DNA of 64,000 bases from a virus. Below, piece after piece: positions 13,515 through 58,109 of the stretch. A program made the position numbers and the translations under genes. Positions within the stretch are counted from its first letter, which is position 1; the number at the start of each line of letters is the position of its first letter. Location: positions 39,947-103,946 of IMG/VR virus record IMGVR_UViG_3300044980_000010; one strand, written 5' to 3'. The notes beneath the pieces were generated by a model that saw only the letters and a list, made by a program, of their open reading frames with translations, was not told the origin of the DNA and searched no databases.

Positions 13515-13523
13515 CTGAGTCTC

Positions 13524-14270
13524 CTAGTTGAATAAATCGAAAAAGCTGTGCGGTATTTTCTTAGGTTCCGGTTCTGTCTCACTCAGTGAGGCGTCACCTT
13601 TACCCACCGCGACGGCTGTGAGTTGTGTTGCGGTGAAGTTCACATCGAAGCTAGCACTAAGCCAGTTGTCGTCCTTTGGACCCCCGACCATGTACGTCGT
13701 GACCGCGATGATCCGTCCATCTTCTCCGTAGATAGCAGAGCCGCTGTCGCCGGGGATCACATGGATGGTGTAGTACACCAAGCCGTCCGCTTGATCCACT
13801 TCGCTGACATCTTGCACTGCAAACGACCTGTACCCTTCTTTGTACTGCGGAGGGTATGCACCACCACCAGAGCCGTAGAGGTAAACGTGCTCGAACGTCC
13901 CGGCTGGATGCGCTCCCGGCTGCAACGGTACGAAGTTGTGAAACTCCTGACCGTCCACGATGTAGATCACGTGGTCTCTACCGTCGATTGTTTTCGACAG
14001 CAGGTGGAACTTCTTCATAGAGAGATCGAGAGTGACCGTGGTGAGGTCAGACTCATTGCAGTGTGCTGCTGTGAGTAGAGCATGTGGTCCTACTGCTGTA
14101 GCTGTGCATTGTCCATCTGGAAACTTGATGCGGTGCTCTGCTCTCTGCTGGATCGTGATTGGGCGTTGAACTGCTACTGACTGAATGGGTCTGTGCTTAA
14201 CAGTGCCCACAACAAGGAGCGTAGCTGCTACAAAGAGCAGTGCGGTCCTGAGGAACTTCTTGAACTGCAT
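13524..14270 (-). CDS. Trypsin-like serine protease with signal/TM N-terminus
   Basis: LLTAAHC, DHVIY, GDSGS triad motifs. Confidence 0.85.
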   Translation of the reverse strand: MQFKKFLRTALLFVAATLLVVGTVKHRPIQSVAVQRPITIQQRAEHRIKFPDGQCTATAVGPHALLTAAHCNESDLTTVTLDLSMKKFHLLSKTIDGRDHVIYIVDGQEFHNFVPLQPGAHPAGTFEHVYLYGSGGGAYPPQYKEGYRSFAVQDVSEVDQADGLVYYTIHVIPGDSGSAIYGEDGRIIAVTTYMVGGPKDDNWLSASFDVNFTATQLTAVAVGKGDASLSETEPEPKKIPHSFFDLFN

Positions 14271-14441
14271 GGTGTAACCCCGGAAGCCGCTCAGTCCAGA
14301 GCACAACGGCTTCGGCCACGTCCGCGTTAAGCGGCCCTCTGTTCGTGGTCTAACGAAAGTCAAAGGCTCACCCGTCTCCGTCTGGGGTGAGCCGAAAGGC
14401 CGTAGAAGGTGGGAAAGGTTAACCACCAACGGAAAGCCATG

Positions 14442-14460
14442 CGTCCCCAACTTGGGGACG
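14442..14460. repeat. 19-bp palindrome, copy 1
   Basis: CGTCCCCAACTTGGGGACG, identical at 60884-60902. Confidence 0.85.
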
Positions 14461-14462
14461 GA

Positions 14463-15164
14463 TTACTGCTTGTTACATCCAAACGGGAAGTTGGTCATCA
14501 GTTCGTCGAACGCTGTGACTGCACCTTCCTTGAACTCTTCCAGTGTGCCGTTGTTTTCGAGGATGATGCTCCAGTCCTCAGGCGACGTGTCTGCAAGAGC
14601 CGTTTCCGAGGCATGCGTACTTGGCGGAAGGCCATCGCGCTGCACAAGGACAGTTTCTCCGTACTGCTTCACAAACGCCATCTCGTTCGGAAAGCGCATA
14701 TCCGTGATTAAAGCAATCTGCGGCTTCTCCAGTTCGATGCGCTGGGCCAGTTGCCGCACCCAGTAGTCTGTGTCGATGCTGCGACGATACTCGGTGCCCC
14801 ACCATTGGAGCAAAGGCCGCTGTTTGCCGAGAGGGTATTGTTCATTGAATTCTGGATTCTCATCCAGCACTACCCATTCCGGCAGTTCAATCAAGTTCTC
14901 ATTCGCCTGCACAAAGTGCGTAGGGCGATTTGCAACAAGAAGACTGAACGCGCCACCTGCTCTCGCAAGGGCACCGTCCACTTCTTTACGCAGTGCGTCT
15001 GCAAAGGAGTACTTGCGGATGTCGTAACGATCCACAGTGTTGAGCGTAAGACCTAAACCATCCACTGAGTACGTCAAACCGCGCTGCTTAATGATCTCGG
15101 CAACGGCTGTGTCCTTTCCGCTTCTCGCTCTGTAGCCGAACCCAAATACTACCGAATCTATCAC
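14463..15164 (-). CDS. Deoxynucleoside monophosphate kinase (T4 gp1-like)
   Basis: GYRARSGKDT, SFADALR, RPLLQWWGTE, ITDMRFPNE, HASE. Confidence 0.9.
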   Translation of the reverse strand: MIDSVVFGFGYRARSGKDTAVAEIIKQRGLTYSVDGLGLTLNTVDRYDIRKYSFADALRKEVDGALARAGGAFSLLVANRPTHFVQANENLIELPEWVVLDENPEFNEQYPLGKQRPLLQWWGTEYRRSIDTDYWVRQLAQRIELEKPQIALITDMRFPNEMAFVKQYGETVLVQRDGLPPSTHASETALADTSPEDWSIILENNGTLEEFKEGAVTAFDELMTNFPFGCNKQ

Positions 15165-15559
15165 TGAGTCTTCCTCCGTTTATGTGGGCAGTAGCCGTAT
15201 AGACCGCGTGCCGAGTTGCAATTGTGACACAACACACGGAAACCTTTTGGGTAACCGTTGCGTTTTAACCAGAACAAAAACTTAGAACCATAAGCATTGA
15301 GTTTCTTTCTATGCTTGTTGCCGCCTTTAATGTGGTCGAAGCACAGGAACTCATACCTTGGCTCACCACAGCACTTGCATTTATTTCCATAGTGTTTAAG
15401 AACCTCTGTTCTTATCCTACGGAGATATTTTGCATCATAGTGTGGATGGCGTTTACGAAAGCGAGCACGCTTGGCTACTAGTTTCTTCCTGTTCTTTTCC
15501 CAGTACTTCTTTTGGGCTTTTGCCATTGCTTTGGGGTGGAGTTTCTTCCACGCTCGCAT
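15161..15559 (-). CDS. HNH endonuclease (true start possibly GTG 15620 with a frameshift)
   Basis: YGNKCKCCGE...FDHI...RVLCHNCN. Confidence 0.8.
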   Translation of the reverse strand: MRAWKKLHPKAMAKAQKKYWEKNRKKLVAKRARFRKRHPHYDAKYLRRIRTEVLKHYGNKCKCCGEPRYEFLCFDHIKGGNKHRKKLNAYGSKFLFWLKRNGYPKGFRVLCHNCNSARGLYGYCPHKRRKTQ

Positions 15560-15616
15560 ATACGCATTGATTCGTGCTTTGTTCTTCTTGCGATATTTTA
15601 AGGTATGCCTTGCGGC

Positions 15617-17448: not shown

Positions 17449-17454
17449 GTGTTG

Positions 17455-17483: not shown

Positions 17484-17487
17484 CGCC

Positions 17488-20061: not shown

Positions 20062-20622
20062 TTAACCTCTGGTTGCTTGCCGGAGAATCTGCTTCAAGTG
20101 GTCCGACATCAATGGTGTGTCCGGCGTGTTGCCATCGGTGCCTTGTACGGCTTCGCCGGGGTTAGCGGCGTTGAGAGGTGGCACTGGGTGCTCCACGTTG
20201 ATCTCTGTGGTGCTAGAAGGTTCAGACGGTGGGGCCGTAGCCGCGCTCTGCATTGCCTTCTTGTGCTGCTCTTCAATGAACTCTTGTTTGTTGATCTCAT
20301 CGACCAACCACTGCAACTTTGATTCTTGCAGTTTGCGTGCCTCTTCGGCTGCGGCCAGAGAGTTTTCCAAAGCGATACGCGCTCTGGTTACTTCCTGAGC
20401 ACGCTCTTGAGCCTCGGCTTCTTCTTTGGCCTTCTTGGCTTCACGCTTCTTCTCTGCCTCTTGGTACTCTGCCAGCCGTTGCTGGCGTTCAGCTTCCGCG
20501 AGTTGTGCGCGTTCGGCCACTTCTTTGCTGAACTGCTCTGCTTGCTCTTTGCGCTGCTTGTCGAGTGCTTCGATGCGCTCTGAAAGCTGGCGCTGTAGTT
20601 CCTCTACGTTCACGTTTTCCAC
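20062..20622 (-). CDS. Coiled-coil hypothetical protein
   Basis: E/Q/A/R heptads; GGAG RBS. Confidence 0.7.
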   Translation of the reverse strand: MENVNVEELQRQLSERIEALDKQRKEQAEQFSKEVAERAQLAEAERQQRLAEYQEAEKKREAKKAKEEAEAQERAQEVTRARIALENSLAAAEEARKLQESKLQWLVDEINKQEFIEEQHKKAMQSAATAPPSEPSSTTEINVEHPVPPLNAANPGEAVQGTDGNTPDTPLMSDHLKQILRQATRG

Positions 20623-20694
20623 ACTGAGTCTCCTGAGTTAAATGTCTACCCCGGCTGTGACGGGGCTTGCTAGGAGTTTCACCTAATACCGAGA

Positions 20695-37211: not shown

Positions 37212-38155
37212 GATCCTCCTCCGAAACATCTCCGGTCAAACCAGACGATACTCGGATCGGCGTAAACCTTTCGGAACTCAGCAATCACTTCCTCCGGTGG
37301 AGTGCAGTGGTAGCCTTTCCAAACAAGGTGCATGCAAAACGCAAATGTGCCGGGAGTAGCTTGCACCTCTGTGAACTTGCTTCGCACCAGCCATCCGTCT
37401 TTACGGTGTGCCTCATTTGGCGACACTGACATTCCAGACGGTGAAGGTTCCGTGAGTGGGACAAGAGTTCGTTCGCGTACAGATCGAACCCTTCCGAGTC
37501 GTCCAGCCCTTGGTACTATGTGTTGAACTTCTTTCCAGACGTACTGTGTGTTGAGCGGTGCCTCTTGCGGCATCGGCTCCTCTGGATTGTAGCCTGTGTG
37601 GATGAAGTAGCGATTGTCGTGGAACATGTTTATTCCCTGTTCCCCAAGCACATGCGCTACCCAGCACTCATCGTTGCGACCATGCGCTGGCAAAGCTGCG
37701 TCACGTAGAAGAGCCATGCCTTTGCGACTGACCCAATAGCAGAATCCCCAAGGTGTGATGTACTTGCCTGTGGTCTGTCTGCAATCATTTCGTCCGCAGG
37801 TGCTGCACGTATCTTTGTGGAAATCGCCGTTGTCGCTGCCAACAAAATCATGCTGCTCAAAACCTGAGGCTAGCAACTCCGTGGGCTTGACCACAACATC
37901 GTCGTCGCACTTCAAAAAGTAGTCGTACCCGTTATCGTAGGCCCACCGAGCAACGGCTCTGACTTTTTCAATCAGCCCGTTATAAGTGTCGTCCACAGGT
38001 AAGAAAACCTCGTCGCCATTCATGTGCTCGCAGCCCTCTGTTCCAAGGAAGAACCTGTAGTCCACTCCTTTTGGCAACTGCGTAAGCCACGTCTCTCTGA
38101 TCACATCGCGCATCTGAGATTTGCTATGTGAAATGATCGCAATCAGTGGCTTCAT
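37196..38155 (-). CDS. GT31/Fringe-like glycosyltransferase
   Basis: VIRETW, RFFLG, DDTYNGLIEK, KCDDD, GFCYWVS, DECWV. Confidence 0.8.
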   Translation of the reverse strand: MKPLIAIISHSKSQMRDVIRETWLTQLPKGVDYRFFLGTEGCEHMNGDEVFLPVDDTYNGLIEKVRAVARWAYDNGYDYFLKCDDDVVVKPTELLASGFEQHDFVGSDNGDFHKDTCSTCGRNDCRQTTGKYITPWGFCYWVSRKGMALLRDAALPAHGRNDECWVAHVLGEQGINMFHDNRYFIHTGYNPEEPMPQEAPLNTQYVWKEVQHIVPRAGRLGRVRSVRERTLVPLTEPSPSGMSVSPNEAHRKDGWLVRSKFTEVQATPGTFAFCMHLVWKGYHCTPPEEVIAEFRKVYADPSIVWFDRRCFGGGSWREV

Positions 38156-39696: not shown

Positions 39697-39707
39697 CTGA
39701 GTCTCCG

Positions 39708-42058: not shown

Positions 42059-42907
42059 TTACCATGAGAGGAATGTGAACTCGTTGTTGAGGTCGCCGTC
42101 GCTGTTGCCGTACGGGATGCGTGCGAAGTCTTGATTTTGCATCCGGCGAACGTTGGCGTTCTTCAACTGGAACATCTGATTTTTTGACTCTGCCAGTAGA
42201 TCAGCAAGCCCCGGTGATCCCAACATTCTTGCATACTTCACGGCTGTGAGGTAGGCGATTGCGTCTGTGCAATCTGGGATGGGCACGTATGTCGAATCGA
42301 AATCCAAATCCGAACTGAAGAACTGAGGCAGTGAGCAGTAGTAGCGAAGACGAATGTCGCGCTGTGTAGTTGCTCCTCTGAAGTTAAGCCGTCCATTGCG
42401 CCACTCCCACTGCGCGAAGATCGGACCTTGGAAGCAACTGTCCAAACCACCGGACGGTGCATCCATTAGAACAAAAGGATTATTGGTGCCAGTGCTGCGC
42501 TCCCAAACTTTTGTTGGGTATAAGCAGTCTGCCGGGAGAATGAGATTCGGCCATAGCTCAAGGCCATCGAAGTACCCCTCAGGTGCCAAGAACGTCTGCA
42601 CGGTGGGATCGCACTGCCCTAGTCCTTGAGATGGACTGTTGATTATAGGGAGGCCAGTGAGTATCACATTGTCTTTGATGAGCACTGGATCACCAACGTT
42701 GCGGAGTTCTCTGTAGACCTCTCGGATGGAACTGTTGAGGAACGGCTGGGTGAATGGTGAGATCGTTGGATCGTTCGTGAAGATTTGACCTTCACCGGGA
42801 GTGTCGGTCGCGCCTGCTTGGGTATCGTTCACCAAGGATCGTACGAGGTCCATGATCGTTGCTAAACTCGTGGTCTGTTGACCTACGTTGATTGTCGGGC
42901 TAGACAT
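42059..42907 (-). CDS. Head-tail adaptor-like protein
   Basis: LVRSLVND...FLNSSIRE...DAIAYLTA pattern; position. Confidence 0.6.
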   Translation of the reverse strand: MSSPTINVGQQTTSLATIMDLVRSLVNDTQAGATDTPGEGQIFTNDPTISPFTQPFLNSSIREVYRELRNVGDPVLIKDNVILTGLPIINSPSQGLGQCDPTVQTFLAPEGYFDGLELWPNLILPADCLYPTKVWERSTGTNNPFVLMDAPSGGLDSCFQGPIFAQWEWRNGRLNFRGATTQRDIRLRYYCSLPQFFSSDLDFDSTYVPIPDCTDAIAYLTAVKYARMLGSPGLADLLAESKNQMFQLKNANVRRMQNQDFARIPYGNSDGDLNNEFTFLSW

Positions 42908-42929
42908 GTTGTCTCCTATAAACTAACAA

Positions 42930-43087
42930 AGGGGAGTGGATCAAAGATTACGGCCACTGGACTCAGATCAGCGACGGGTCTTCTCTCCACTCCCCTAAGA
43001 TTGATACAGAAATAGCATGGCACCACCAAACCCCACCGAAGGCGGGGGACTCAGAACCCAGCGTTGCGGGTGGAGTCGGTAATGCCA
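42930..43087 (-). ncRNA. Tandem long-hairpin RNA with loops UUCUGAGUC and AUCUGAGUC
   Basis: Hand folding; G-U pairs favour the minus strand; loops are antisense to the recurring RBS motif. Confidence 0.65.
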
Positions 43088-43134
43088 AGATCGTGTTACC
43101 AAAATGTGCGCGGCGTTGTTCTGCCGCGACTGAC

Positions 43135-43950
43135 TTACTGCTGCACCTTTGGTTGCTTTGGTGCGTACTTCTCGTTTTCCGTCGCTTCGTAGGCTTGAGC
43201 GCGGCTGCGTACACCAGCCTTGATCGCTGCATCCCAATCCCCGACGCACAGGCCACCGCCTTCGAGGGCGTGGAACGGTGCTCCAACGTTTGCAGGCGAG
43301 CCGCAACGTGGGCAGTTCTCTTTGTGGACGGCCTTGTTGTGCCACGTGAACGTCTCGTGGAAGTAGTCCGCTGCGGCGTGATGCGCCGGACTCAGGACCG
43401 CTGACAGGCTCTGTGGGTTCGATACCTCAACCGCACGCGCTTCTTGCAGCAGGCTCTTGTAGTGTGCTTCCAAGCGCCGCGTTGCTGCCGCCAGTTCCTT
43501 CTCCGTTGGCTCTTCCTTCAGAGACCAGAACACTCCCAGCTTTCCAAGGTTGTTTCCAACCGTGAACGTCTGCGTGATCACAGCGTCCTGATCCAGTGAA
43601 AGGTTGTCAGGATTGATGATGTCCATCGCCATGCGCCGTCCGTCGATCACAACGATGTCGATGTCGTTGGAGTCGATGTTGCCCTTCGGGAACTTGAAGG
43701 GCGAAGGCAGCTTGGTGATTCGAGCGTATTTCTCGCTCTCAGCGCGAGCCGGGATGATCATTTCTTTGATCAGCGGCAGGCGCGATACTTTGTACTCCTG
43801 CTTTGCGATGTTGAACAGGTAGACGAAGAAATCGGCTGGACGACTCAACATATAATCTGCTGTTGAGAAGTTCCAATCGACGTTGTTCGCCCTAGTCATT
43901 GCCGTGCTGAGATCACCACGGGTAGTAGGTGCGCTACAGGTTGGTTCCAT
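43135..43950 (-). CDS. Hypothetical protein with C-terminal Zn ribbon; paralog of 45807-46571
   Basis: DGRRMAMDIINP.NL.LDQD shared. Confidence 0.75.
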   Translation of the reverse strand: MEPTCSAPTTRGDLSTAMTRANNVDWNFSTADYMLSRPADFFVYLFNIAKQEYKVSRLPLIKEMIIPARAESEKYARITKLPSPFKFPKGNIDSNDIDIVVIDGRRMAMDIINPDNLSLDQDAVITQTFTVGNNLGKLGVFWSLKEEPTEKELAAATRRLEAHYKSLLQEARAVEVSNPQSLSAVLSPAHHAAADYFHETFTWHNKAVHKENCPRCGSPANVGAPFHALEGGGLCVGDWDAAIKAGVRSRAQAYEATENEKYAPKQPKVQQ

Positions 43951-43985
43951 TGTGAGTCCTTCTGACGCTGTGCGTCATTCTGAGT

Positions 43986-44717
43986 TTATACCGGATCAGG
44001 AGATACAGAGAGACCGCGCCCGAGTCGGCTCGCGTTGGTCATCATCTTGTTCCAGTTCCGTTGCATCTGTTCGATCTTCTTGTCAACCAGAGCAGTTCTG
44101 CACCCCTGCTTCTGGTAGGACACTGCGTTGCCTTTGAATGCCAGAGAGTTTGATCGCATCACATCTTCAATCATGTCGATGTCTGCTTTGTCTTCTCTCT
44201 CCTTCAAATCATCCATCACAGCTTTGGTCTTTTCCCAACTGATGTCTTTGGCTTGTGTGATGATTGGCACTACCGTGTCCAGCAGGAACGTGTTGAGCGG
44301 CATCATTTCAAAGTACATCCTGCCGTTTCTCATCTCGCTCCAGCGTAGGTTGTACAGCATCTGGTATCGACCACTGTATGGGTACTCTCCCAGAGTTTGC
44401 AACCCAGAGTCTTCGTCGTAGTTCTGGACGTAGTAGAGTTCTGGTGTTCCATACTCAAGAGAGTCATGCCATTGCAGCAGCGCCCAGCATGGTACGCCAC
44501 CTCCGATTAGAAGGTCTCGGTATCCTGTGTAGGACACTTGATCTTCTCCGGCCCACGCACCGCCTGCGCGATACATGGAATGTGGGTCACCACCTTGCGA
44601 CCATACCAACAAAAAGTTTGGCTCGTCGTATCGGTTAACCCCTCCGATGTCTGTGAGGCGTTCTTGGAACTCCTCAGGGCATAGGTACTGCTGATAGCTA
44701 GCTGTTGGGCTGGGCAT
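43986..44717 (-). CDS. Hypothetical protein (head module)
   Basis: Long ORF, GGVNRYDEPNF.LVW. Confidence 0.7.
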   Translation of the reverse strand: MPSPTASYQQYLCPEEFQERLTDIGGVNRYDEPNFLLVWSQGGDPHSMYRAGGAWAGEDQVSYTGYRDLLIGGGVPCWALLQWHDSLEYGTPELYYVQNYDEDSGLQTLGEYPYSGRYQMLYNLRWSEMRNGRMYFEMMPLNTFLLDTVVPIITQAKDISWEKTKAVMDDLKEREDKADIDMIEDVMRSNSLAFKGNAVSYQKQGCRTALVDKKIEQMQRNWNKMMTNASRLGRGLSVSPDPV

Positions 44718-45054
44718 CTGTCGCCTGTCCCTGCTGTGGAGACTCCTCGTTAGGGGGCGTTGGGTTCTCTCCACGGGCTACTGCGGCTTTCAGCGCCGCA
44801 CGCTGTGCCTTCAACTGTTCAGTCTTGACCAGCACGTAGGCATCGACCTCTGTGCGATCCACGATGCCGAGTTTCTTTTCACAGATGAAGTTAATCAAGA
44901 TGGCTGCTGTGTCTGCCATTCCCATCAACTCGTTGTCGTTTGAGGCCAGCTTCATAAACAACTTATGAGCCTCGCGCCGCGTCATCGGTGCATCCCAGTA
45001 CTTATCGTAGGGTTGTGTGATGGGTGAATCGCTGCTGAGAATGAGGTTAGACAT
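44698..45054 (-). CDS. Hypothetical protein
   Basis: GGAAGG RBS, overlap with neighbours. Confidence 0.6.
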   Translation of the reverse strand: MSNLILSSDSPITQPYDKYWDAPMTRREAHKLFMKLASNDNELMGMADTAAILINFICEKKLGIVDRTEVDAYVLVKTEQLKAQRAALKAAVARGENPTPPNEESPQQGQATDAQPNS

Positions 45055-45790
45055 TGTTGCCTTCCAATCCCGGCTCAGAAGCAGCCGTTTCCCGCTCGAT
45101 TCCACGGACATCCTGTACACGCACTACGCGCAAACCTTCTGGGTCTGGCTCATAGTTCATCTGTACCGAGTCACAGAGGACTTTTACTTTCTCTTCGTCC
45201 ATGTGGAAGACTTCTGAGTTGTAGTCACCATAAGTGACCTTATCTCCCACGCAAACCACTTCGCTCATCTGAATGCGCTGCCCACCAAGGATTACGAACT
45301 GCCCTGTGGCCAAGACGATGCCGATGTTTGAGTGCTGCCTGTACTTTGCTGCGATGACCAGTCCTGTTTTCGTGTTGAGAACGCTTCCGTCCTCCATGAT
45401 CTTCATGTCTGGGCTGTCAGCACACCGCTTGATGAGGATGCGGTCGAGAATGGGTGTGAACGAGTCATACTTCTTCTCAGGCCATTTCTTTTCAGCTACA
45501 GGAGCGGCTTTTACTTCTTCCACTTCCTGCGAGTAGCTTCTGCGGCGGTCGATGACTTCGATTCCTGCCCCCAACTCTTCCACGAGGGCGATGGGCTGAC
45601 GCTCAAAGCGTTCACCCTTCAGAATCTTCTCGTCATACTCCGCGATATCTGCGTCTGTGACGCCGTACTTTTCCTTCACGATGTCCCGGCGAACCCTGAG
45701 ATCATACTCAAAGTCCGAAAGTTCACCACCACCCGCAGCAAACTGTGCGCTGCGTGCGCCGCGTGCCAATACATCTCCACCGTTGTTCAT
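45047..45790 (-). CDS. groES: Co-chaperonin GroES/Cpn10 with N-terminal extension
   Basis: TPILDRILIK, TKTGLVI, GIVLATG, VGDKVTYGDY, RVQDVRGI. Confidence 0.8.
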   Translation of the reverse strand: MNNGGDVLARGARSAQFAAGGGELSDFEYDLRVRRDIVKEKYGVTDADIAEYDEKILKGERFERQPIALVEELGAGIEVIDRRRSYSQEVEEVKAAPVAEKKWPEKKYDSFTPILDRILIKRCADSPDMKIMEDGSVLNTKTGLVIAAKYRQHSNIGIVLATGQFVILGGQRIQMSEVVCVGDKVTYGDYNSEVFHMDEEKVKVLCDSVQMNYEPDPEGLRVVRVQDVRGIERETAASEPGLEGNNV

Positions 45791-45806
45791 TGAGTCTCCT
45801 GAGTCG

Positions 45807-46571
45807 TTACCGAGTTGATCTCGGACCTTCTACGTAGTCCACTGCTGCCTTCACTTCCACCACGGGTACGCCAAGTGTTCCGGCTGCTGCTGTGATTCGC
45901 ACGATGTTTGCGCGATCAATAACTTCTTGGTAGTACTTCTTCAAACGCTTGTGTGCCGCCTTGATTTCTTTCTTCAAGGGAGGGTTGTGAGTAGAGAAGA
46001 ATACACCCTTTTTTCCGAAGTCGTTTCCTACAGCGGACGACCACTGCAAGTAAGAGGCTTGATCCTGATCTTGATCTAAGCCCAAGTTGGAGGGGTTGAT
46101 CAAGTCCATGGCAACCCTTCGTCCGTCCATGAAGAAGTAATCTGTCTCTCCACTCTCCACGTTCGGCTTTGGTTGCACCACAACTAGCGGAAGGCTTGTG
46201 GCTACCGTGTACTCTTCATCAGGAGGGCATGCTGGAATCTTCAACCTCTTGATGAGGGCGTTCCCTAAGCTGTGCTCTTGTCTGCTGATGTTGTAAATCC
46301 AAACTTTTTCTGCTCTGCCTAAGATGTCGAACAGATTCAACTGATTGATACACAGATCAGTGTGAAGGTTCGTTGAGTCAGTCATAGCTTTAGACAGTTG
46401 CTCGTCGCGCAACTTCGTTACAGTCATTGTGGCGACGATCTCTGAGTTTATTGAGGCGCTTTCACTTGGCAGCGGCTCGATTGGGTCAATGATCAGTTCC
46501 GCTGCTGATTGTCCGGCGATTAGGTTGTACATCTCGGCGGCTTTACTGCGGATTAGTTCTAGTCCAGTCAT
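45807..46571 (-). CDS. Hypothetical protein; paralog of 43135-43950
   Basis: DGRRVAMDLINPSNLGLDQD, GNDFGKKGVF. Confidence 0.75.
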   Translation of the reverse strand: MTGLELIRSKAAEMYNLIAGQSAAELIIDPIEPLPSESASINSEIVATMTVTKLRDEQLSKAMTDSTNLHTDLCINQLNLFDILGRAEKVWIYNISRQEHSLGNALIKRLKIPACPPDEEYTVATSLPLVVVQPKPNVESGETDYFFMDGRRVAMDLINPSNLGLDQDQDQASYLQWSSAVGNDFGKKGVFFSTHNPPLKKEIKAAHKRLKKYYQEVIDRANIVRITAAAGTLGVPVVEVKAAVDYVEGPRSTR

Positions 46572-46724
46572 CTGAGTCTCTTTTCCTTACCTAGAGTTTA
46601 CGTCTAACCGATGTTTTGGCTTCTATCCTCCCCGGCCAACCAGACCCGCACGTTTGCGCGAGAGGTCTGGGGCCAAGGAAATCGCTCGCTCCATCGCAAA
46701 ATGGCCGAGACGAAGATCGAGTAC

Positions 46725-46769: not shown

Positions 46770-48101
46770 TTAGACCGTTGGAACAGCGGCGTTCTGGATG
46801 TACAAACCAGCGCGTGGAGCCGCGTTCGCCAAGTTGAAGCAGGTGTTGTAGGCGAACATGTGGCTCGTCAGGTACGTGCCATTTGTGGTGCCCACGTCTG
46901 GGACTGGGGCCACAACGTTGCCGCCGCCGAAATCGTACAGTTCCAGAGGAGACAACTCACCGATGTACCAGTTCTCCATGATCAGGAGGTCCATGCGGTT
47001 TGCAGTCGCGGTCGCGCTCTTGTGGTACTTGCGTCCACCGAACGTGTCCGAGAAGTAACGCTTGGACATATCCAGAGTCTTGTCGCCCTTGACTTCCTGA
47101 GCGTTCACGATCTGGACGTTGTACATCAGGTTGCTCTGAGCAAATGCCTGCTCAAGAGGACCGTACCAAATGCCAGACTTCAGGGACTCTGCGTCTGGAC
47201 CGAGTGCGCGGGTCAGGAGCACTTCGGCGCGTTGTGCGATGCCGGGGGTCAGTGCCGCACCGTTCAGGTTGATGGTGGGGGTGCTGAGACGACCGGGGTA
47301 CGCATTGCGGTTCAGTCCACCGATGGTTCCGGTGTTGCTGTTCACGTTCCAAGCCTTGATGCCCAGAATCGAGTTGCCGCTGCCGTACGACGCACCAGCC
47401 ACAACGATGTAGTCGGTCACAACGACATCGGAAGGAAGAACGGTGCTGAAGTACAGGGTGTTGCTGGGGCCGTCAGAGTAGCTGATGGTTGCCGAGGTGA
47501 CTCCACCAGTGCGCTGCACACCACCCGTGCTGTAGAACTTCACGACCTGTTGGTCGGTGAAGGCCACGGCGACGTTGATGCCAGTGATGCTGGCGGTCTG
47601 GGCTGCGGGAGAACCGCCGCTCAGAACGATGGTCGCAGTCGAGGGAATCTGGTCGATCATGCCCGTACCGTCCGAGTTGATCAAGCCTTCAATGCCCTGC
47701 ATCGCGCTGTCCAGCGAGTTCTTCATTTCCTGCGCCTTCACGGCGAACAGGCCCTTCTGCTTCGAGTCGGTGGAAGCCTGAGCTAGCCACGAAATCTCGC
47801 AGACGTTGAAGAGATACACTGGGGCCAGAGCAAAGGAAGCCCACTGCGAACCGCTGCCACGGAGCATGCTGTCTGCGTTGCCCGTGCCTTGTGTGATTGC
47901 CGCACCCGCCTGTACCCGGAAAGGCACGCGGAAGGATGCACGCTGAGTCCCGCCAGCGTTCGACTGGTTGGACACAGGAATTTTGGTCGCTTCATTCTTG
48001 AAGAGACTGTATGCGGTGCTGCCATGGAAAACCAGATCGGGGATTTCCTTTGCAAACGCATCGAGTTCAACTGCTTCTACTGCTGCTTCTAGTAATGCCA
48101 T
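46770..48101 (-). CDS. Major capsid protein
   Basis: 443 aa after portal and scaffold; DGTG, GLNR..YP, C-terminal PRAG; strongly biased codons. Confidence 0.75.
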   Translation of the reverse strand: MALLEAAVEAVELDAFAKEIPDLVFHGSTAYSLFKNEATKIPVSNQSNAGGTQRASFRVPFRVQAGAAITQGTGNADSMLRGSGSQWASFALAPVYLFNVCEISWLAQASTDSKQKGLFAVKAQEMKNSLDSAMQGIEGLINSDGTGMIDQIPSTATIVLSGGSPAAQTASITGINVAVAFTDQQVVKFYSTGGVQRTGGVTSATISYSDGPSNTLYFSTVLPSDVVVTDYIVVAGASYGSGNSILGIKAWNVNSNTGTIGGLNRNAYPGRLSTPTINLNGAALTPGIAQRAEVLLTRALGPDAESLKSGIWYGPLEQAFAQSNLMYNVQIVNAQEVKGDKTLDMSKRYFSDTFGGRKYHKSATATANRMDLLIMENWYIGELSPLELYDFGGGNVVAPVPDVGTTNGTYLTSHMFAYNTCFNLANAAPRAGLYIQNAAVPTV

Positions 48102-48406
48102 AAAACTTACCTACTGGTGTTGCGAAAGTTCCACGTAAAATGGTTGAGCCTCTGAGCGAGTTCTACCGGAACTGTTCCGCTGAGTCATTCAACTGCGTTT
48201 GCTTCAACAAAGTTTGTCGCGCCCATTTTATTAGGCGTTGTCGCCGCCGTCGCGCCAACCTTTGGCATAGAGATGTGTCTCCGAAGTGCCCTGTCTGCTA
48301 TCACTCGTTTTCACGCGCTGCTTAGATAGAGAACTTCGGAGGCACATTTCGGTGTCTCCTGCGTAACTGACCAACACGCTTTCAACGCTGCGTGCTTTCC
48401 AGCTTG

Positions 48407-48649
48407 TTATGCCGCTGGAGTTGCTGGTGCGGCAGGTGCTGCTGATGCAGCGGGAGCAATGGCTGCAACTACAGTTGCATTCAGTGCGACCACTGTGGCA
48501 TCTGCTGCGTCAACTTCAGACTGTGGAACAGATGCTTCGGATTGTGCGACCAAAGCCGCAACGTTTGCAGACAAAGTTGCAATGTCTGAGTTCAGTTGTG
48601 TAATTGCCATTGTTAATCTCCTAAGTTCTTCTAACAGTTTTTTGAACAT
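48407..48649 (-). CDS. Small Ala-rich coiled-coil protein
   Basis: TAATG overlap with the scaffold gene. Confidence 0.6.
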   Translation of the reverse strand: MFKKLLEELRRLTMAITQLNSDIATLSANVAALVAQSEASVPQSEVDAADATVVALNATVVAAIAPAASAAPAAPATPAA

Positions 48650-50151
48650 TATTTCCGCCAAGTTATGAACTTGAACGACTTGCCGTCGCCGGACTTCACA
48701 AATCCACGCCCCATGATCTGGAGAGTGATGAGGTCCGATGCTGAGTAGTCTTTCCCGCCAACCTTGATAGCTTCGCGGACAAGATTCTCTGGACGGCTGG
48801 CGACGTAGATCGGTTTGCCAGTGGCTACCGACTGCACCGCTGCCTTTGTGGCTGTTTCTTTCTTCACCACAGCAGCCGCTGCCTTGCCTGCTGCACTGCC
48901 GCCCTTTGCGTAGCCGGGGTAGCGGTTCTGAATGGTCTTGGTCACGATGTCCGTTGCGATGGAGTCCACCTTTGCTTGGTGGTACTGGAGCATCTTCGCA
49001 CGGTCTGGGTTTTTCGATTTCCACATCGCGTTCATCTGTGTCTGATAAGCCTTGTCGGCTTTCAGCGCAGCGTACAGACGGTCCTTGATTCCGTTTCCGA
49101 GATCAACCTTCGTCTCATACGGGAAGTCCTTGAAGAATGGCATCTTCAGGAAGCCGCCAAGAACTTTGCCCAGAGAACGGTTGTTGTGTTTGTCACACTC
49201 TTCCGCAACTCCAGACTCGAACTTCTTGCGATCTTCCGTGGCCGCATCGGTCTTGGTCTTCTCAAACGCCGCTTTCTCAGCGAGGAACTTCTTGCGCTCT
49301 GGCGTTTCTGCTGGTGTAGCTGTACGCGCTTTCGCATCCTTGTCCAGATCGGTGTACCAATCTGTGATGCTCTTCACGAGGTCCGTGATTTTTGCAATGT
49401 TCGGGACTACTTTTCCCGTTCCATCTTTCTCCGTTAGCGCAGCATTGAACTGGCTAACAAAGGAGTCCATGTGGACTTCCTTCAGCGCGTCTGCAACCAC
49501 TGGAATAGTGGTGTTATAGAACGCATCGGAGTCGTGCGCTTTCAACTTCTGCAACAGAGACGGAGCCAACTGCCCAAGAGCCTCTGGATGGTTGTTGGCT
49601 TTCAAATCTTCGATCACGTTGTCCCACAGCTTGGGGTCTGCCGCGTAGAGCAGTTCGTCCGTCGCTGTAACCGTGTCGATCATACCTTGCATCTTCTCGT
49701 AGCCTTCGGGTCCACCTACTGAGTCGATGAACGCTTTGGCTTCCTGCATCTCAGAAACACCTTTGGGGAAGATTTGCTTTGCAGCATTCCACCGCTCAAA
49801 GGAGCCGTGCAGTTGCTTCACCACTTCTGCATTTTTTGGATCGGCGTCACGCATCGCTTTCAAAGCTGCGCGAACGTTGGCGGGTGTGGCGTCTGTCGGA
49901 GTCGTGTTTGCTTTCGCAGCAGCTTCGGTCTTGAACTTCTCCTGCTCTTCTGGAGTCTTCTCGGTGCCGTCTGCGTTGTGTGTTTCGGTCTCTTTGCCCT
50001 CAGTGGGTTCAGTAGAGGGTGTTTCCTCACTGCCTGCTGCTGGGGTCACTTCTGAGTCTACTTCAGGGGCTGGAGTTGAGTCCACTTCAGCGGCTGGTGT
50101 CGCATCCACTGTTGCATCCAGTGAAGCGAAATCTACTAAGGCGTCTGCCAT
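48649..50151 (-). CDS. Putative capsid scaffolding protein
   Basis: Acidic N-terminus, helical body, between portal and capsid. Confidence 0.6.
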   Translation of the reverse strand: MADALVDFASLDATVDATPAAEVDSTPAPEVDSEVTPAAGSEETPSTEPTEGKETETHNADGTEKTPEEQEKFKTEAAAKANTTPTDATPANVRAALKAMRDADPKNAEVVKQLHGSFERWNAAKQIFPKGVSEMQEAKAFIDSVGGPEGYEKMQGMIDTVTATDELLYAADPKLWDNVIEDLKANNHPEALGQLAPSLLQKLKAHDSDAFYNTTIPVVADALKEVHMDSFVSQFNAALTEKDGTGKVVPNIAKITDLVKSITDWYTDLDKDAKARTATPAETPERKKFLAEKAAFEKTKTDAATEDRKKFESGVAEECDKHNNRSLGKVLGGFLKMPFFKDFPYETKVDLGNGIKDRLYAALKADKAYQTQMNAMWKSKNPDRAKMLQYHQAKVDSIATDIVTKTIQNRYPGYAKGGSAAGKAAAAVVKKETATKAAVQSVATGKPIYVASRPENLVREAIKVGGKDYSASDLITLQIMGRGFVKSGDGKSFKFITWRK

Positions 50152-50217
50152 TGTGAGTCCTTCTGTTCTGAGTTTTGGAGCCTCGGGGCCACGTTGTTCT
50201 GTGGCCCCTCGTTGGTA

Positions 50218-53841: not shown

Positions 53842-54321
53842 TTAGCTTAGGTCTGGCATTGCAAAGCCGTCTTCCTCAGACGTTGCGCTCTGCTGTGCTT
53901 TTCCTTTGCTGAGATACGGGCTGTCCTTCTCTTCGTTCTCTTCTTTGCCTGCGGGTGGTACTGCTGCAAGCTGGCGAGCCTCTTCGTGCGCTTTGTGCGC
54001 GTGCTCGTGAACGTTGGTGTGGGTGTGTCCGTCCTTGTGATGAGAAGTCACAGTGTGGCGTCCGGCCTCTTCATCGTGGTGGATGATGACCTTGTGCGCC
54101 TTTCCGTGCTCCGCAACCACGGGATGCTGCTCTTCCTCGTGCTCGTGCTGTTCAGAAGGTTCGCCACCCTCTTTTTCACCAGCCTCGAACTCGGGCGTCT
54201 CTTTGGCTTCGTGCTCAGGCGACTCACTGTGCATACCGTCTTCGGTGTGGTCTTCATCATACTTCTTACCAGCGAAGATTGACCCAAAGCGTTTGCCGGG
54301 AGTTTTCTTAGATTCGTACAT
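53842..54321 (-). CDS. His/Glu-rich protein
   Basis: GGAG RBS; many His and Glu residues. Confidence 0.65.
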   Translation of the reverse strand: MYESKKTPGKRFGSIFAGKKYDEDHTEDGMHSESPEHEAKETPEFEAGEKEGGEPSEQHEHEEEQHPVVAEHGKAHKVIIHHDEEAGRHTVTSHHKDGHTHTNVHEHAHKAHEEARQLAAVPPAGKEENEEKDSPYLSKGKAQQSATSEEDGFAMPDLS

Positions 54322-54706
54322 GTTGTTCTCCATGCTTCTCAAGATACTCTGCTGCTAAACGGCAGAGGTTTGGATCGTCCTCAAGTAAACCTATCGCCAA
54401 ATTGCAATCCCTATGAATGAAGTCTCTCAATTTGTTTGTTCGATGGTCGTGATCCAAATGAGCACGTTCTTTGCCCAGAGGTCTCTTGCAGAGACCACAT
54501 AGGTCTCCATCTTTTCTTTGCTTCTCACGCTTTTCAGCGTATTGCTTGGGAGTCAACCCGAAGCGTTCTCCTCGGCGGTCTCTTTTGACTAAGTGTGCAG
54601 GTCGGTACTTCTTCTGATAGCACCTCTTACATAAGCCTTTGGCTTGGTAAGGAAGTCTTGGGTGACACTTTGGAATGCTTCTTGATCCCGGTATTCCTGT
54701 TGGCAT
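54308..54706 (-). CDS. Endonuclease VII-type homing endonuclease
   Basis: CGLC...LDHDHRT..LR..IH..CNLAIG..EDD. Confidence 0.85.
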   Translation of the reverse strand: MPTGIPGSRSIPKCHPRLPYQAKGLCKRCYQKKYRPAHLVKRDRRGERFGLTPKQYAEKREKQRKDGDLCGLCKRPLGKERAHLDHDHRTNKLRDFIHRDCNLAIGLLEDDPNLCRLAAEYLEKHGEQHVRI

Positions 54707-54785
54707 TTCTAACTCCTATACAGTTCGAGCCGGAAGTGGTATAGGCACTCCCGGCTCTACGCTGGGTAATTAGTCCAGCGTTTCC

Positions 54786-55001: not shown

Positions 55002-55050
55002 GGTTCTTCCCCCGGCGCAGCTTGGCGCTTCACAACAGTCCATGCTTCAC

Positions 55051-55434
55051 CTATTTCTTGGCGGCTGCTGCCGCTGCTTCTGCTGCCTCTTGCTCTTCAG
55101 CAAGTTCTTTCTCGATCCTTGCGTTGTGCTCGTCTTGCTCTGCCTGCCACGAGGTTTTAACAGGTGGTGCAGTAAAGCTAGCGAAGCTGGGCTTCTCTGG
55201 TTTCTTTGCAGTAGGGTCAATGCCTACGCGCCGATTGATATTCAGTTCGTACATACCAATCTTTGCAGTCAGCAGTGCTTTCTCTGCACGCAGATCAGCA
55301 ATCACTCCGTCCTTGTCCTGACGAAGCTGCTGCATGTCCGTACGGAGCAACATTAAATCCTGCTCCAGACGTTGGACTAAGGAAGAGTAAAATAACTCAT
55401 CCCATGTGTCTCTGATCCATGCGCCGATGTTCAT
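55051..55434 (-). CDS. Coiled-coil hypothetical protein
   Basis: ATGA overlap with the terminase. Confidence 0.65.
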   Translation of the reverse strand: MNIGAWIRDTWDELFYSSLVQRLEQDLMLLRTDMQQLRQDKDGVIADLRAEKALLTAKIGMYELNINRRVGIDPTAKKPEKPSFASFTAPPVKTSWQAEQDEHNARIEKELAEEQEAAEAAAAAAKK

Positions 55435-57110
55435 CCCTGATCCTGCTTTCCCATCCACACGGGTTGTTCCGGTGGTCTGAATGATGCGGTCCTGTTCGCA
55501 GCTTCAGCGTCCAGTTTCATCTTCAAAAAGTGTGCGGCCAGAGGATCAGTCTTTTTCAGCTTATCGACTCGCTCTTTCTCTGCTTGTGCGGCTGGCTTCT
55601 TGCGTGCGGCTAGGTGTCCGTACAATCCGTAACGGAAACCGTCGTAGCAGTCGTCGCCTTTAGCATCGACTTTGAGCACGTCATCAAGTAGGTCTGGGTT
55701 TCGCATCAACGACGGGATTGCAAGAATGATTTCCTTGCAGGTGTCGAGGATTACTAGCTCACCCTTCTTAATGGCGTTGTACATCAGGGACGCGGAACCG
55801 ATACGATCTCGCGTAGCTGACGTGACTGGCGGGAGTCCCACTTGCTTCAACGCTCGTGAGTACTCATCCGCAGGTGTTCTGTTGTCCATCTGGCGATTGA
55901 ACTTTTCGTGAGAGAAGTAAATCGCGTTCAGTTTGACGGGTTGACCGTTAGGGAGGTGGCATTTCGATTTGATGAGAGATGCTAACTCATCCATCGTTTT
56001 TCCACCCGTCACTACCAGTTCAGCAAAACACACAGTCTTGAGTCTGTAGTTTTCTCCAACTGAGTCCTTGACCATCGCCTTTGTGAATAGATAAGTGGCG
56101 TTGGCGTGCTGCATTCCCCAGTCTTCTCCTGCCCACACTGGCTGGTAGTCTTGCCAGACGATTGAGTCAGGGTCTTCTCTGAGGTTGATTACGTGGTAAG
56201 AAGGATCGAAGCAGTCGAAGTATTGTCCCTCGACAGAACCATCGTACCCGTATAGAACTTTGTCGCGCTTCGCCTTCGGCATCGACATGAGACGTGCGAT
56301 GATGCCGGGGTCGCGTGCGAGCAGTTCTGGGTTGTCCATTACTGTCGAACGCTGATAGGCGTATTTGCTTGGGTCATAAATCTTGACCCACTCACCAGAT
56401 TCCTGAACCCACCATGTGCCATCCACAGGATCGCGCTTGGCTTCCTCGCCGGGATTCCAAGGCTCCTGCTGTACAAACAAGGTGCGGTAGTATTCGTAGT
56501 GAGGGCCTAACGGGTTTGTGCAGCCCACGATTGCCGGGATGGGCAGGTTACCTGCTTCATCTCTCTCGCAACCTGCGTTGACGATGTTTCTGGAGTAGAG
56601 CATCATCCATGCATCGGGTGAGAACTGTCCACACTCGTCAACGAGAATAGCTGGGTACGCTTGGCCTAAGTACTGCTCGATGTCTCGATCTTTGTTGTTC
56701 TGACAGTGACCGAACACGATGCGCGATCCATTCTTCAACGTCGCTACGTGCTTTGTTTGGTCGTAGTCATATAGTTCCGGTGGCATGAAGGTTTTGAAAT
56801 CTGAGATAGCACCAGACTCCAACTCCTTAAACGTACGCCGCAGCACAAGCAGGTTGCAGTTATTCCACTGCAAGCAGTAGTGCATCACGAAGTACATTAA
56901 CCAACCACACGTTTTGCCTGAACGGATGCCGCCAGTACTGAGGCACTGTTCTGCCGCAGGCTGTACGTACACTTTGCCGTTACGCATCACGTTCCGTAGC
57001 AGTTCTGTCTGCTTCGCTTGGAACCTGAAAATCTTGTCAAAGTTCAGCGTCCCGTCCGCGTTCAGGTACGGCTTTGTTTCTACCGCGTCTGTAATCTTTT
57101 TTCGGGGCAC
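55431..57110 (-). CDS. terL: Terminase large subunit
   Basis: GGIRSGKT, LRRTF.EL, ILVDE, CTNPLG, DWG, DDCYDGFRY. Confidence 0.92.
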   Translation of the reverse strand: MPRKKITDAVETKPYLNADGTLNFDKIFRFQAKQTELLRNVMRNGKVYVQPAAEQCLSTGGIRSGKTCGWLMYFVMHYCLQWNNCNLLVLRRTFKELESGAISDFKTFMPPELYDYDQTKHVATLKNGSRIVFGHCQNNKDRDIEQYLGQAYPAILVDECGQFSPDAWMMLYSRNIVNAGCERDEAGNLPIPAIVGCTNPLGPHYEYYRTLFVQQEPWNPGEEAKRDPVDGTWWVQESGEWVKIYDPSKYAYQRSTVMDNPELLARDPGIIARLMSMPKAKRDKVLYGYDGSVEGQYFDCFDPSYHVINLREDPDSIVWQDYQPVWAGEDWGMQHANATYLFTKAMVKDSVGENYRLKTVCFAELVVTGGKTMDELASLIKSKCHLPNGQPVKLNAIYFSHEKFNRQMDNRTPADEYSRALKQVGLPPVTSATRDRIGSASLMYNAIKKGELVILDTCKEIILAIPSLMRNPDLLDDVLKVDAKGDDCYDGFRYGLYGHLAARKKPAAQAEKERVDKLKKTDPLAAHFLKMKLDAEAANRTASFRPPEQPVWMGKQDQG

Positions 57111-57120
57111 TGAGTTGCCT

Positions 57121-57630
57121 CTAGTTCTGTTGGATGACCACAGCGTCTACGAACGACGGCTGAGTCTTCTCTGCCAGCTTCTTGCTTTCGTCCACTACTT
57201 GTGGGTGCATGAGTTCTGGTGAGACAACGATGATCGTCTTCACGGGTTGATTCGTGAGTTTGTCTAACTCCTGCTCTGAGGGTGCAGGTTTTCCGAGTGC
57301 GCTGAGTCGCATAATCTCGAATGCTTTTACTGCCGCCATCATTGCCTTTGGATCGTCGCTGTCATTCTGAGCGATGCGGACGATGTTCAAAAAGGCATGC
57401 ATGTACTCCGTGAGTCCTTCTTTGGTTGGACTCGCTGAGTTTAGAAGTTTGCGCTCTGCGCGTGTGAACTCTATCGTGGGGAGCAGGGGCTTCGGCTTCT
57501 TTGCGAAGGTGCCTCCTTTGGTCCTCACCATCTCTCGTGTTCCGCCTTCTTTGGTCTTGACGATAACGAGTGATGTCTCAGGCGGGGTTGATTCCGCCTG
57601 AGTTTTATCTTTTGCTACTGAGTCCGGCAT
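57121..57630 (-). CDS. Putative terminase small subunit
   Basis: Immediately upstream of terL; GGTFAK, GKP. Confidence 0.5.
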   Translation of the reverse strand: MPDSVAKDKTQAESTPPETSLVIVKTKEGGTREMVRTKGGTFAKKPKPLLPTIEFTRAERKLLNSASPTKEGLTEYMHAFLNIVRIAQNDSDDPKAMMAAVKAFEIMRLSALGKPAPSEQELDKLTNQPVKTIIVVSPELMHPQVVDESKKLAEKTQPSFVDAVVIQQN

Positions 57631-57638
57631 GGTGCTCC

Positions 57639-58088
57639 TTACAGTTTCTTGAACACATTGACTGCGCCGTCAAACACGTACTCGGCTTTGCTGAGACCGT
57701 ACTTCACGAACAGGTTCTCCACAAACTCCGTGTAGGCTTTCGACTTTGCATCCGCGATCTTCTGGAGGCGCTGGATTTCCATCTGCGCTTTCAGGAACTC
57801 CAGTTCCGCTTCACGAAGGAACAACTTCTCATCCGTGACGACGTTGACCAGAGCGGCCTTCACTTTCTCTTCGACCTTCTCTACAACCGCGACTGCTTCG
57901 CCTTCGACTTTCTTGGCTTCGGCCACAACGGCTGCGGCTACGGTCTTCACTTCGCCTTCAGCGGCTGCGACGGTTCCTTCTACGGCCTTTTCGACTTCGC
58001 TGGTCTTCGTTTCAACTTCAGTCTCGACGGTTTTGACTTCTCCGGCGACGGCTGCTTCTGCTGCCTTCACTTCGGTTTCGATGCTCAT
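57639..58088 (-). CDS. Acidic V/A/E-rich coiled-coil protein
   Basis: AAGGAG RBS; low-complexity N-terminus. Confidence 0.7.
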   Translation of the reverse strand: MSIETEVKAAEAAVAGEVKTVETEVETKTSEVEKAVEGTVAAAEGEVKTVAAAVVAEAKKVEGEAVAVVEKVEEKVKAALVNVVTDEKLFLREAELEFLKAQMEIQRLQKIADAKSKAYTEFVENLFVKYGLSKAEYVFDGAVNVFKKL

Positions 58089-58109
58089 TCTGAGTCTCCT
58101 TGTGTTTTA

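Follow-up and report, generated by a model that had tools for sequence, protein, structure and literature searches.

The 64,000-nucleotide (nt) window analysed here comprises bases 39947-103946 of one 103,946-bp virus record (IMGVR_UViG_3300044980_000010), which CheckV estimates to be 94% complete. The record comes from a soil metagenome; the best-matching runs are all from soil, one of them being probably the origin, and neither DNA nor protein comparison with the cultured-phage collection gave a match to the genome. Genes are read rightward up to about position 10,400 of the window, and a long leftward arm (approximately 10,450-58,550), here called the late arm, carries the virion and assembly genes. 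The open reading frames and start codons were chosen by our own heuristic, with 135 gene calls in the whole 104-kb genome; leftward genes are designated below by their extent or by the position of their start codon. This report concerns two elements of the late arm: a short box, (G/A)ACUCA(G/A) in the mRNA sense, which marks the translation starts of a subset of late genes, and a candidate small RNA (42931-43087, minus strand) with two long hairpins, the 9-nt apical loops of which carry the complement of the box.

The original prediction gave the box as (G/A)ACTCA and quoted ten start contexts, all of which match the sequence exactly, on the minus strand, abutting the ATG or GTG of open reading frames of 135-559 amino acids (aa). 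At three genes the box reads GACUCAGAU, its final AU being shared with the AUG: the endonuclease VII-like gene 13107-13514 (box at 13513-13521), the glycosyltransferase gene 38152-39696 (39695-39703) and gene 45807-46571, the first after the capsid gene (46570-46578). The deoxynucleoside monophosphate (dNMP) kinase gene 14463-15164 has GACUCAG with a G that is part of the GUG start (15164-15170); the large terminase gene 55431-57110 has AACUCA abutting its GUG (57111-57116), conserved in six of seven orthologous leaders; and gene 57639-58088 has GACUCAGAA, whose final A is also the first letter of the AUG (58088-58096). Two copies are present at the other starts. Gene 20062-20622 (186 aa, no family) has AACUCAGGAGACUCAG, with a copy on either side of the Shine-Dalgarno (SD) sequence (20624-20639), and the GroES-like gene 45047-45790 has GACUCAGGAGACUCA, with two copies around the SD (45791-45805), which about 20 orthologous leaders also keep. 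Upstream of gene 48649-50151 (500 aa), the leader contains AACUCAGAA (50174-50166) and GGACUCA (50160-50154), together spanning 50154-50174. Gene 43135-43950 lies just before the RNA; in its 5′ untranslated region (UTR), the same AACUCAGAA (43986-43978) is followed by a small hairpin, GACGCacaGCGUC, and by GGACUCA (43959-43953), the whole occupying 43953-43986. Both of the additional sites that had been pointed out are also present. One is in the capsid leader, at 48181-48186 within a GACUCAG (48180-48186) about 80 nt 5′ of the capsid start (48101); the other is inside gene 57121-57630, where GGACUCAG in codons 2-5 (57618-57625) is a possible further site and GACUCA is retained in relatives. 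The box had been placed in the spacer between SD and start codon; it does lie at starts, but it is not restricted to the spacer, copies being found up to about 40 nt upstream and, for the capsid start, about 80 nt upstream.

The predicted positional enrichment is strong when measured against shuffled sequences. Across the 135 genes, ACTCA is the most enriched 5-mer outside the SD core between positions -14 and -1 (13 occurrences in 12 genes versus 1.9 expected, P ~1e-7). Between -10 and -1 it occurs 12 times, a count that no shuffle out of 20,000 reached (0.65 occurrences with column-preserving and 0.37 with within-sequence shuffling); ten of these 12 copies are in the late (minus-strand) arm. 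Over the whole window RACTCA is not enriched (94 versus 90 +/- 11 in shuffles), and the longer GACTCAG occurs 28 times versus 13.7 +/- 3.5 in dinucleotide shuffles, a count that none of 100 shuffles reached. Inside genes of both arms, GACUCAG is found 21 times on the sense strand, where a third-order Markov model expects 7, and 3 times on the antisense strand, where 4 are expected; the intragenic copies are mostly in the frame xxG-ACU-CAG, and their excess may represent extra pairing sites or a codon-pair bias.

The candidate small RNA is directly 3′ of gene 43135-43950, in the 227-nt gap that separates it from gene 42059-42907; read in the late direction, this gap folds with a z-score of -5.8 relative to shuffles. 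Immediately after the stop codon of gene 43135-43950 is a terminator-like hairpin, CGCGGC-agaacaac-GCCGCG followed by CACAUUUU (43101-43128, minus strand), which may be a terminator, a processing site or a promoter. The segment CACAUUUUAGUAACA, which precedes hairpin 1, is conserved in relatives; it and the AUCUU/AUGU frames may mark sites of processing. Hairpin 1 (43018-43087, minus strand) has the outer stem UGGCAUUACC...GGUGGUGCCA and displays the loop UUCUGAGUC at 43056-43048; 17 homologous hairpins in relatives have an invariant loop and covarying stems. Hairpin 2 (42931-42986, minus strand) has the stem AGGGGAGUGGA...UCCACUCCCC and the loop AUCUGAGUC at 42968-42960, and appears terminator-like by eye, with a U-rich run behind it; it is followed by UUUGUUAGUUU and then by the SD and start of gene 42059-42907. 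A scan of 42700-43300 against Rfam returned no family at threshold, only chance-level matches. In some relatives (L006, L013, L016, L019, L020, L043, L050, L071), 500-1,700 nt of extra DNA lies between the RNA and a flanking gene, on either side, and the RNA thus behaves as a module of its own.

Relatives were gathered through the major capsid protein (75 loci on viral contigs and 80 in metagenomes; the related loci fetched in all numbered more than 200), and the family is widespread in soil metagenomes, with 416 terminase homologues at E <= 1e-20. Among relatives of the window's own lineage (lineage 1), all 26 loci that span the gap between the flanking genes have CUGAGU in this slot, in one hairpin or in two about 90 nt apart. 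CUGAGUC is invariant in the loops of all 28 hairpins so collected, and the stems that close these loops are entirely different from one another (GGGG/CCCC, UUUUG/CAAAA, GCGUG/CACGC etc.). The loop-closing helix is 90% paired in the 28 hairpins, compared with 48.5% in shuffles; its covariation score is 1.02 versus 0.21, none of 500 shuffles reaching it and slid registers giving at most 0.29, and double changes are found at all five of its pairs. The outer stems covary as well, with double changes at all eight predicted pairs. In 22 of the 28 hairpins the late-sense strand is the better-folding one (mean -4.8 kcal/mol, Wilcoxon P = 1.5e-5); it contains 86 G-U pairs versus 31 on the complement. 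The direction of folding and the excess of G-U pairs together indicate an RNA read in the direction of the late genes, so that its loops would be antisense to the box rather than copies of it.

Loop 1, UUCUGAGUC, is the exact complement of GACUCAGAA, and loop 2, AUCUGAGUC, is the exact complement of GACUCAG plus AU(G). Loop 2 therefore pairs at nine of nine positions with GACUCAG plus AU at genes 13514, 39696 and 46571, which accounts for the fact that ACUCAG abuts the AUG at these three genes. Loop 1 has a nine of nine complement at gene 58088 and an 8-nt complement in the upstream ACUCAGAA copies at genes 43950 and 50151. The loop is usually followed by a C, which lets GGACUCA pair through 7 nt as well. 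Within positions -40 to +12, perfect matches of at least 7 nt are found at nine late-arm genes, four of which are nine of nine. The same pairing emerges from an unbiased seed finder, which selects the intergenic 7-mer whose reverse complement recurs most often elsewhere on the sense strand: the loop 7-mer (CTGAGTC, TCTGAGT or an overlapping word) was the top seed in 15 of 19 distinct lineage-1 loci, and the reverse complements of the top seeds had 10-17 copies per 21 kb or less, compared with approximately 1.3 expected. None of the other CUGAGUC sites of the genome (11830+, 37617-, 19158-, 10079-) is displayed in a loop. Outside the window, an early-arm gene (102 aa) has UUGGACUCAGG-AUG at C1:19152-19162 (+), for which the duplex predicted with loop 1 (-15.4 kcal/mol) is the best anywhere in the genome; this site may be a target beyond the late arm, or may be due to chance.

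The box persists at the orthologous starts of about 100 metagenomic relatives, as had been proposed as a check: it is kept at those of genes 43950, 45790, 50151 and 57110, and of gene 55434 in some relatives, down to approximately 40% protein identity. GACTCA was found de novo as the top non-SD hexamer of 820 distinct lineage-1 initiation regions (143 versus 8 expected). The leaders of relatives often have two or three copies of (A/G)ACUCAG(A/G)A, on either side of the SD or on both, and at least two copies are present in 117 of the 218 box-bearing initiation regions of lineage 1. One class of copies ends -1 to 4 nt from the start codon and the others lie 9-40 nt upstream. The leader of gene 50151 has two to three copies in about 35 orthologous leaders, and in lineages 2-4, treated below, its orthologues or positional equivalents have the box specific to their lineage; the leader of gene 43950 retains both of its copies in relatives and the small hairpin between them has undergone compensatory changes (GGCGC/GCGCC). 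The marking is selective: only 15-22% of initiation regions carry a box, and none adjoins the start in the orthologous leaders of the capsid gene or of genes 42034, 42907, 52815, 53045 and 54321.

In more distant relatives the start box is a different one, and the exposed box of the RNA differs with it. In lineage 1, the reference, the RNA box is YCUGAGUC(C) and the start box is (G)GACUCAG(A/U). Lineage 2, whose capsid protein has about 58% identity to that of the window, has neither CUGAGUC hairpins nor any enrichment of ACUCAG; its start box is (A)GGAGUCUC(A), its RNA box is UUGAGACUCC, and the matching form of the start box is GGAGUCUCAA. In lineage 2 the same slot is filled by a structured RNA that shares the frame of AUCUU, outer stem and then AUG, GAGACUCC being invariant in five such RNAs, and AGTCTC is present in 28 of 148 initiation regions versus 0.9 expected. 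Lineage 3, which was reached by a capsid profile search, has the loop UCCGUCC, closed by GCG/CGC, and the start box (A)GGACGGA; (N)CCGUCC loops were found in seven RNAs, and AGGACG occurs 35 times in 206 initiation regions versus 1.5 expected. Lineage 4 has a long hairpin with the 9-nt loop CAUGUCUCC and the start box GGAGACAUG, the complement of the loop including the start codon. The capsid proteins of lineages 3 and 4 are placed at about 40-47% identity to that of the window, a figure that is not a direct measurement. The compensatory support for the stems extends to the RNAs of lineages 2 and 3. Regions with the boxes of lineages 1, 2 and 3, respectively, number 184, 1 and 2 of 820 in lineage 1, 0, 28 and 2 of 148 in lineage 2, and 1, 0 and 31 of 206 in lineage 3; box use is mutually exclusive among the three lineages counted.

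The positions of both elements are preserved through these changes. In all four lineages the RNA is directly 3′ of the same orthologous gene (approximately 270-300 aa), the orthology being indicated by 24-36% identity (tblastn, lineage 2) and, in further comparisons, by 30% identity (E 3e-31) and 29% identity (E 7e-28). The gene positions marked by the box are likewise shared by all lineages: one upstream of the capsid gene, the one that comes first after it, and the one that precedes the RNA. For the two around the capsid gene, orthology in lineages 3 and 4 was judged by position and size alone. The capsid leader contains the lineage-specific box about 80-95 nt 5′ of the start in lineage 1 (RACUCAGC) and in lineage 2 (GGAGUCUCC). 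Complementarity to the RNA covers the SD core in lineages 2, 3 and 4, the spacer in lineages 1, 2 and 4, and the start codon in lineages 1 and 4. The joint change of RNA and box in four lineages is the decisive evidence for reading the RNA as a putative antisense partner of the box. At the first gene after the capsid gene, the lineage 4 box is tandemly duplicated (CGAGACAUGAGACAUG; L178 11405-11420), which hints at how box copies may arise. In a further cluster of 15 loci (cluster L192, L192-L207), a candidate box AUCGGGAGGA(A) is enriched at starts, with TCGGGAG in 13 of 134 initiation regions including that of the capsid-upstream gene; no complementary structured RNA was found in this cluster.

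The explanation that we consider probable, with good but not complete confidence, is that a trans-acting antisense small RNA, encoded by the phage, targets the (G/A)ACUCA(G/A) box and most likely represses translation initiation. The original prediction had proposed shared post-transcriptional control by an antisense RNA or by a RegA/RegB-like protein; the antisense branch finds strong support in the complementarity of the loops, in the strand from which the RNA would be read and in the four complementary lineage pairs, and nothing calls for a protein. Four of the features by which a trans-acting small RNA is recognised are found together here: compensatory structure, a conserved exposed seed, seed matches in several mRNAs and joint change of seed and target. 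In the proposed mechanism, the RNA would be transcribed in the late-gene direction, directly after gene 43135-43950, and its loops would pair with the boxes, loop to single strand, through 6-9 bp at no fewer than nine or ten late-arm genes and in the capsid leader, the two loops and the tandem boxes permitting two-point binding. Pairing at the initiation regions would occlude binding of the 30S ribosomal subunit. Occlusion is the most likely effect in view of what the pairing would cover, namely the SD, the spacer and/or the start codon, and the inclusion of the SD core and/or AUG in the complementarity of lineages 2-4 fits it as well. The output of a late subset (terminase, GroES-like protein, glycosyltransferase, dNMP kinase, endonuclease and several proteins of unknown function) would thereby be lowered relative to that of co-transcribed genes that lack the box. 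From these sequence comparisons we infer that the RNA is a discrete molecule, that it pairs in vivo and that repression is the outcome.

Several observations weigh against such a small RNA. No promoter or terminator was called around it by a consensus scan, and it may belong to a longer mRNA, forming the 3′ UTR of gene 43135-43950 or else leading into gene 42059-42907 as its 5′ UTR. In the minimum-energy fold of hairpin 1, GAGUC pairs with an upstream GACUC, so that the loop is possibly masked in part. The duplexes are short (6-9 bp), and many box copies are GGACUCA(A/C), which pair through 6-7 nt only. A count of predicted duplexes did not discriminate: 16 genes reach -10 kcal/mol or lower, and 28 of 200 shuffled-loop controls gave counts at least as high, because shuffles often create anti-SD words. 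The four lineages represent only three independent switches, and within lineage 1 the initiation regions show no significant association between the loop variants (UUC versus UCC) and the sequence 3′ of the box (Fisher P = 0.29); over whole lineage-1 loci, the 5′ flank of the loop and the 3′ flank of the box show a trend. The single mapping contig from soil metatranscriptomes covers 43861-44027, outside the RNA; as only assembled contigs were searched, this says nothing either way. Finally, simple occlusion would not account for the capsid-leader box, which lies about 80 nt before the start.

This capsid-leader site and the far-upstream copies suggest that a second mode (processing, antitermination or activation) is possible. 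The same RNA-mRNA pairing might in fact have a positive or processing outcome throughout, by opening leader structure, recruiting or positioning ribosomes, protecting the mRNA from RNases, guiding its cleavage or preventing termination in the capsid leader. The capsid-leader box is located in a terminator-like hairpin followed by CAUUUU, a setting for which occlusion cannot account; many other copies are 9-40 nt upstream of their starts, and the RNA is encoded among its proposed targets and is probably co-transcribed with them. We consider such an outcome unlikely, as pairing of small RNAs near start codons blocks initiation, and the loop of lineage 4 covers SD, spacer and AUG (GGAGACAUG), that of lineage 2 covers the SD core and three of the sites in the window include the AU of the AUG.

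Explanations that dispense with the antisense RNA fare worse. The short, purine-flanked box could be a site at which a protein binds or cleaves, such as a RegA-like repressor, a RegB-like endoribonuclease or a host factor, the complementarity of the RNA being incidental or the RNA being only an antagonist that masks the site. T4 provides a precedent, in that RegA reportedly binds initiation regions and RegB is said to cut GGAG in SD sequences. No match to RegA (PF01818) or RegB (PF10715) was found in the genome, a weak result since control genomes were equally silent. What makes a protein site improbable is that the start box and the RNA box have changed complementarily in four lineages; if the box were a protein site, there would be no reason for a covarying hairpin loop to display its complement. 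The box might instead be an intrinsic translation signal, pairing with rRNA or binding S1 and spread by selection for strong initiation, to which the RNA is unrelated or a secondary anti-enhancer. C/A-rich unstructured leaders do enhance translation, and the box copies are tandem and C/A-rich. However, four different boxes (GACUCAG, GGAGUCUC, GGACGGA and GGAGACAUG) occupy the same gene positions, which is easier to reconcile with a partner private to the phage than with a conserved ribosomal one. Every one of these boxes is complementary to an RNA of the phage itself, and only a small fraction of initiation regions carry a box; this explanation is slightly more improbable still. Least credible of all is that the box acts on DNA, as a late transcription factor site, a promoter element or a GANTC site for CcrM-type methylation, the loop copies being the same double-stranded site reversed. 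GACTC is indeed a GANTC site, and GACTCAG and CTGAGTC are one site on double-stranded DNA; but the box at starts is strictly in the mRNA sense, abutting or including the start codons, and its complementary copies are in apical loops whose stems covary, with the G-U pairs favouring one strand only. Methylation was rejected on specific grounds: of the GANTC variants at starts only GACTC is enriched (11 versus 1, 3 and 1), about 26% of the start copies in relatives are AACTCA, which is no GANTC site, and GANTC is neither depleted nor enriched in the genome.

The annotation of the surrounding genes is sparse. Matches to Pfam and PHROG support the large terminase (55431-57110), the dNMP kinase (14463-15164), the GroES-like domain (45047-45790), the glycosyltransferase (38152-39696) and the endonuclease VII-like protein (13107-13514). 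The first four had been named in the original prediction, along with a scaffold protein and a portal protein for which there is no match. Most other late proteins have no match in PHROG and Pfam, including that of gene 43135-43950 beside the RNA, for which a look-up in the ESM Atlas gave a chance-level score of 0.82. The major capsid protein gene (46770-48101, minus strand; 443 aa, HK97 fold), which was the anchor for collecting relatives, has no box in its own SD-start spacer. A model of the capsid protein built from 67 sequences has a predicted local distance difference test (pLDDT) score of 87, an earlier model from 7 sequences (pLDDT 29) having been discarded. The protein has a profile match to 7f38_A, and among the Foldseek matches listed all are capsid proteins of phages, gene transfer agents or phage-inducible chromosomal islands (E <= 6e-7; best E 4.9e-11).

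A few further features of these genes were observed. The match to the capsid gene spans 1,470-1,955 nt in many relatives (L006-L009, L013, L018, L021, L023, L039, L042, L064 and others), compared with 1,329 nt, which points to probable insertions inside the gene (an intron, intein or homing element), and several terminase homologues are about 800 aa long with an intein domain (PF14890). The 548-nt gap upstream of the capsid gene does not consist of leader alone: a small alanine-rich open reading frame within 48400-48610 (minus strand) has a good SD (GGAGAUUAACA-AUG) and contains AACUCAG at codons 6-9. Orthologues of gene 53842-54321 in relatives have a small hairpin just 5′ of the SD with compensatory changes (CGGCAUGGCCG, CGGCACUGCCG, CGGCUUUGCCG), the equivalent region of the window being 54322-54360. 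Eight tRNA genes, including tRNA-Gln(CUG), are located at 10895-11785, 59077-59152 and 59948-60021. The idea that the loop mimics an anticodon loop (UUCUGA in the loop of hairpin 1 resembling that of tRNA-Gln(CUG), with CAG just 5′ of the AUG at several boxes) was judged a coincidence and dropped, given that conservation extends beyond CUG and that the distance to the AUG varies.

Among known regulators, the candidate RNA resembles seed-in-loop small RNAs such as RNAIII, RsaE and AbcR1, in which short conserved motifs in loops or single strands pair with the SD and start regions of many mRNAs. RNAIII and RsaE of Staphylococcus aureus are said to pair in this way, by seeds in loops, with many mRNAs. 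Those three are host RNAs that govern host regulons through C-rich anti-SD seeds, whereas here both the RNA and all of its proposed targets are viral, the targets have a dedicated box in addition to the SD, and box and seed vary between lineages. AbcR1 of Rhizobiales has two separate pairing modules (PMC4152367). SviR of the Vibrio cholerae satellite PLE (bioRxiv 10.1101/2022.04.08.487710) is a trans-acting small RNA that lowers the translation of phage structural genes and affects the processing of its own mRNA. SviR is satellite-encoded and directed against the phage, whereas the RNA described here would regulate genes of the phage that encodes it, by means of a dedicated, repeated box. A 2025 review describes phage small RNAs that for the most part regulate host genes or are antisense in cis, and includes no self-directed regulon of multiple late genes. 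The four co-varying pairs of seed and box constitute a natural set of orthogonal RNA-target pairs that could serve as translation switches.

In position and orientation, the boxes resemble the start-associated sequence (SAS) and extended SAS (ESAS) of Cluster K mycobacteriophages, an asymmetric box found in one orientation a few nucleotides 5′ of some starts, where it touches or overlaps the SD; it is conserved between subclusters, and the host lacks it (PMC3203893). The SAS consensus is 5′-GGGATAGGAGCCC, 3-7 bp upstream of starts, as opposed to GACUCAG, GGAGUCUC, GGACGGA and GGAGACAUG here, and it belongs to a different phage group, a different host phylum and the non-structural half of the genome rather than the late arm. 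Its authors left undecided whether the partner is an RNA or a protein, and noted a lone copy in the opposite orientation without explanation (PMC3203893). SAS has no identified partner, whereas in the present family a complementary RNA has been identified by comparative analysis. A search rule follows for phages with a start-associated sequence: to seek the complementary exposed box in a structured intergenic RNA.

A close likeness is also seen to c4 of phages P1 and P7, a phage antisense RNA directed at a ribosome-binding region elsewhere on phage mRNA, with a target in the same operon and complementary differences between relatives. The pairing sequences of c4 are reportedly displayed in loops and differ in specificity between P1 and P7. 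It controls one operon (icd-ant), for lysogenic immunity, whereas the site described here is spread over at least ten dispersed late, virion and assembly genes. One study (PMC8198154, which cites Citron and Schuster 1990 for c4) states that the C4 antisense RNA is required to repress ant and that it has a binding site in the immI operon. C4 (Rfam RF01695) has no match in the genome at E <= 0.001, the controls being silent too, and no relationship of sequence or structure links the two RNAs. A wider proposal, which is tentative and may well be wrong, is that RNA and box form a private, re-programmable address code for the translation of the late-gene block, such that the RNA of each phage acts on its own kind only; it could be both a governor of dosage or timing and an incompatibility or exclusion determinant between co-infecting relatives, and would also represent the type of partner that is missing for the start-associated sequences of other phages, e.g. 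Cluster K. If this is true, such exclusion would resemble the heteroimmunity of P1 and P7, but applied to virion genes.

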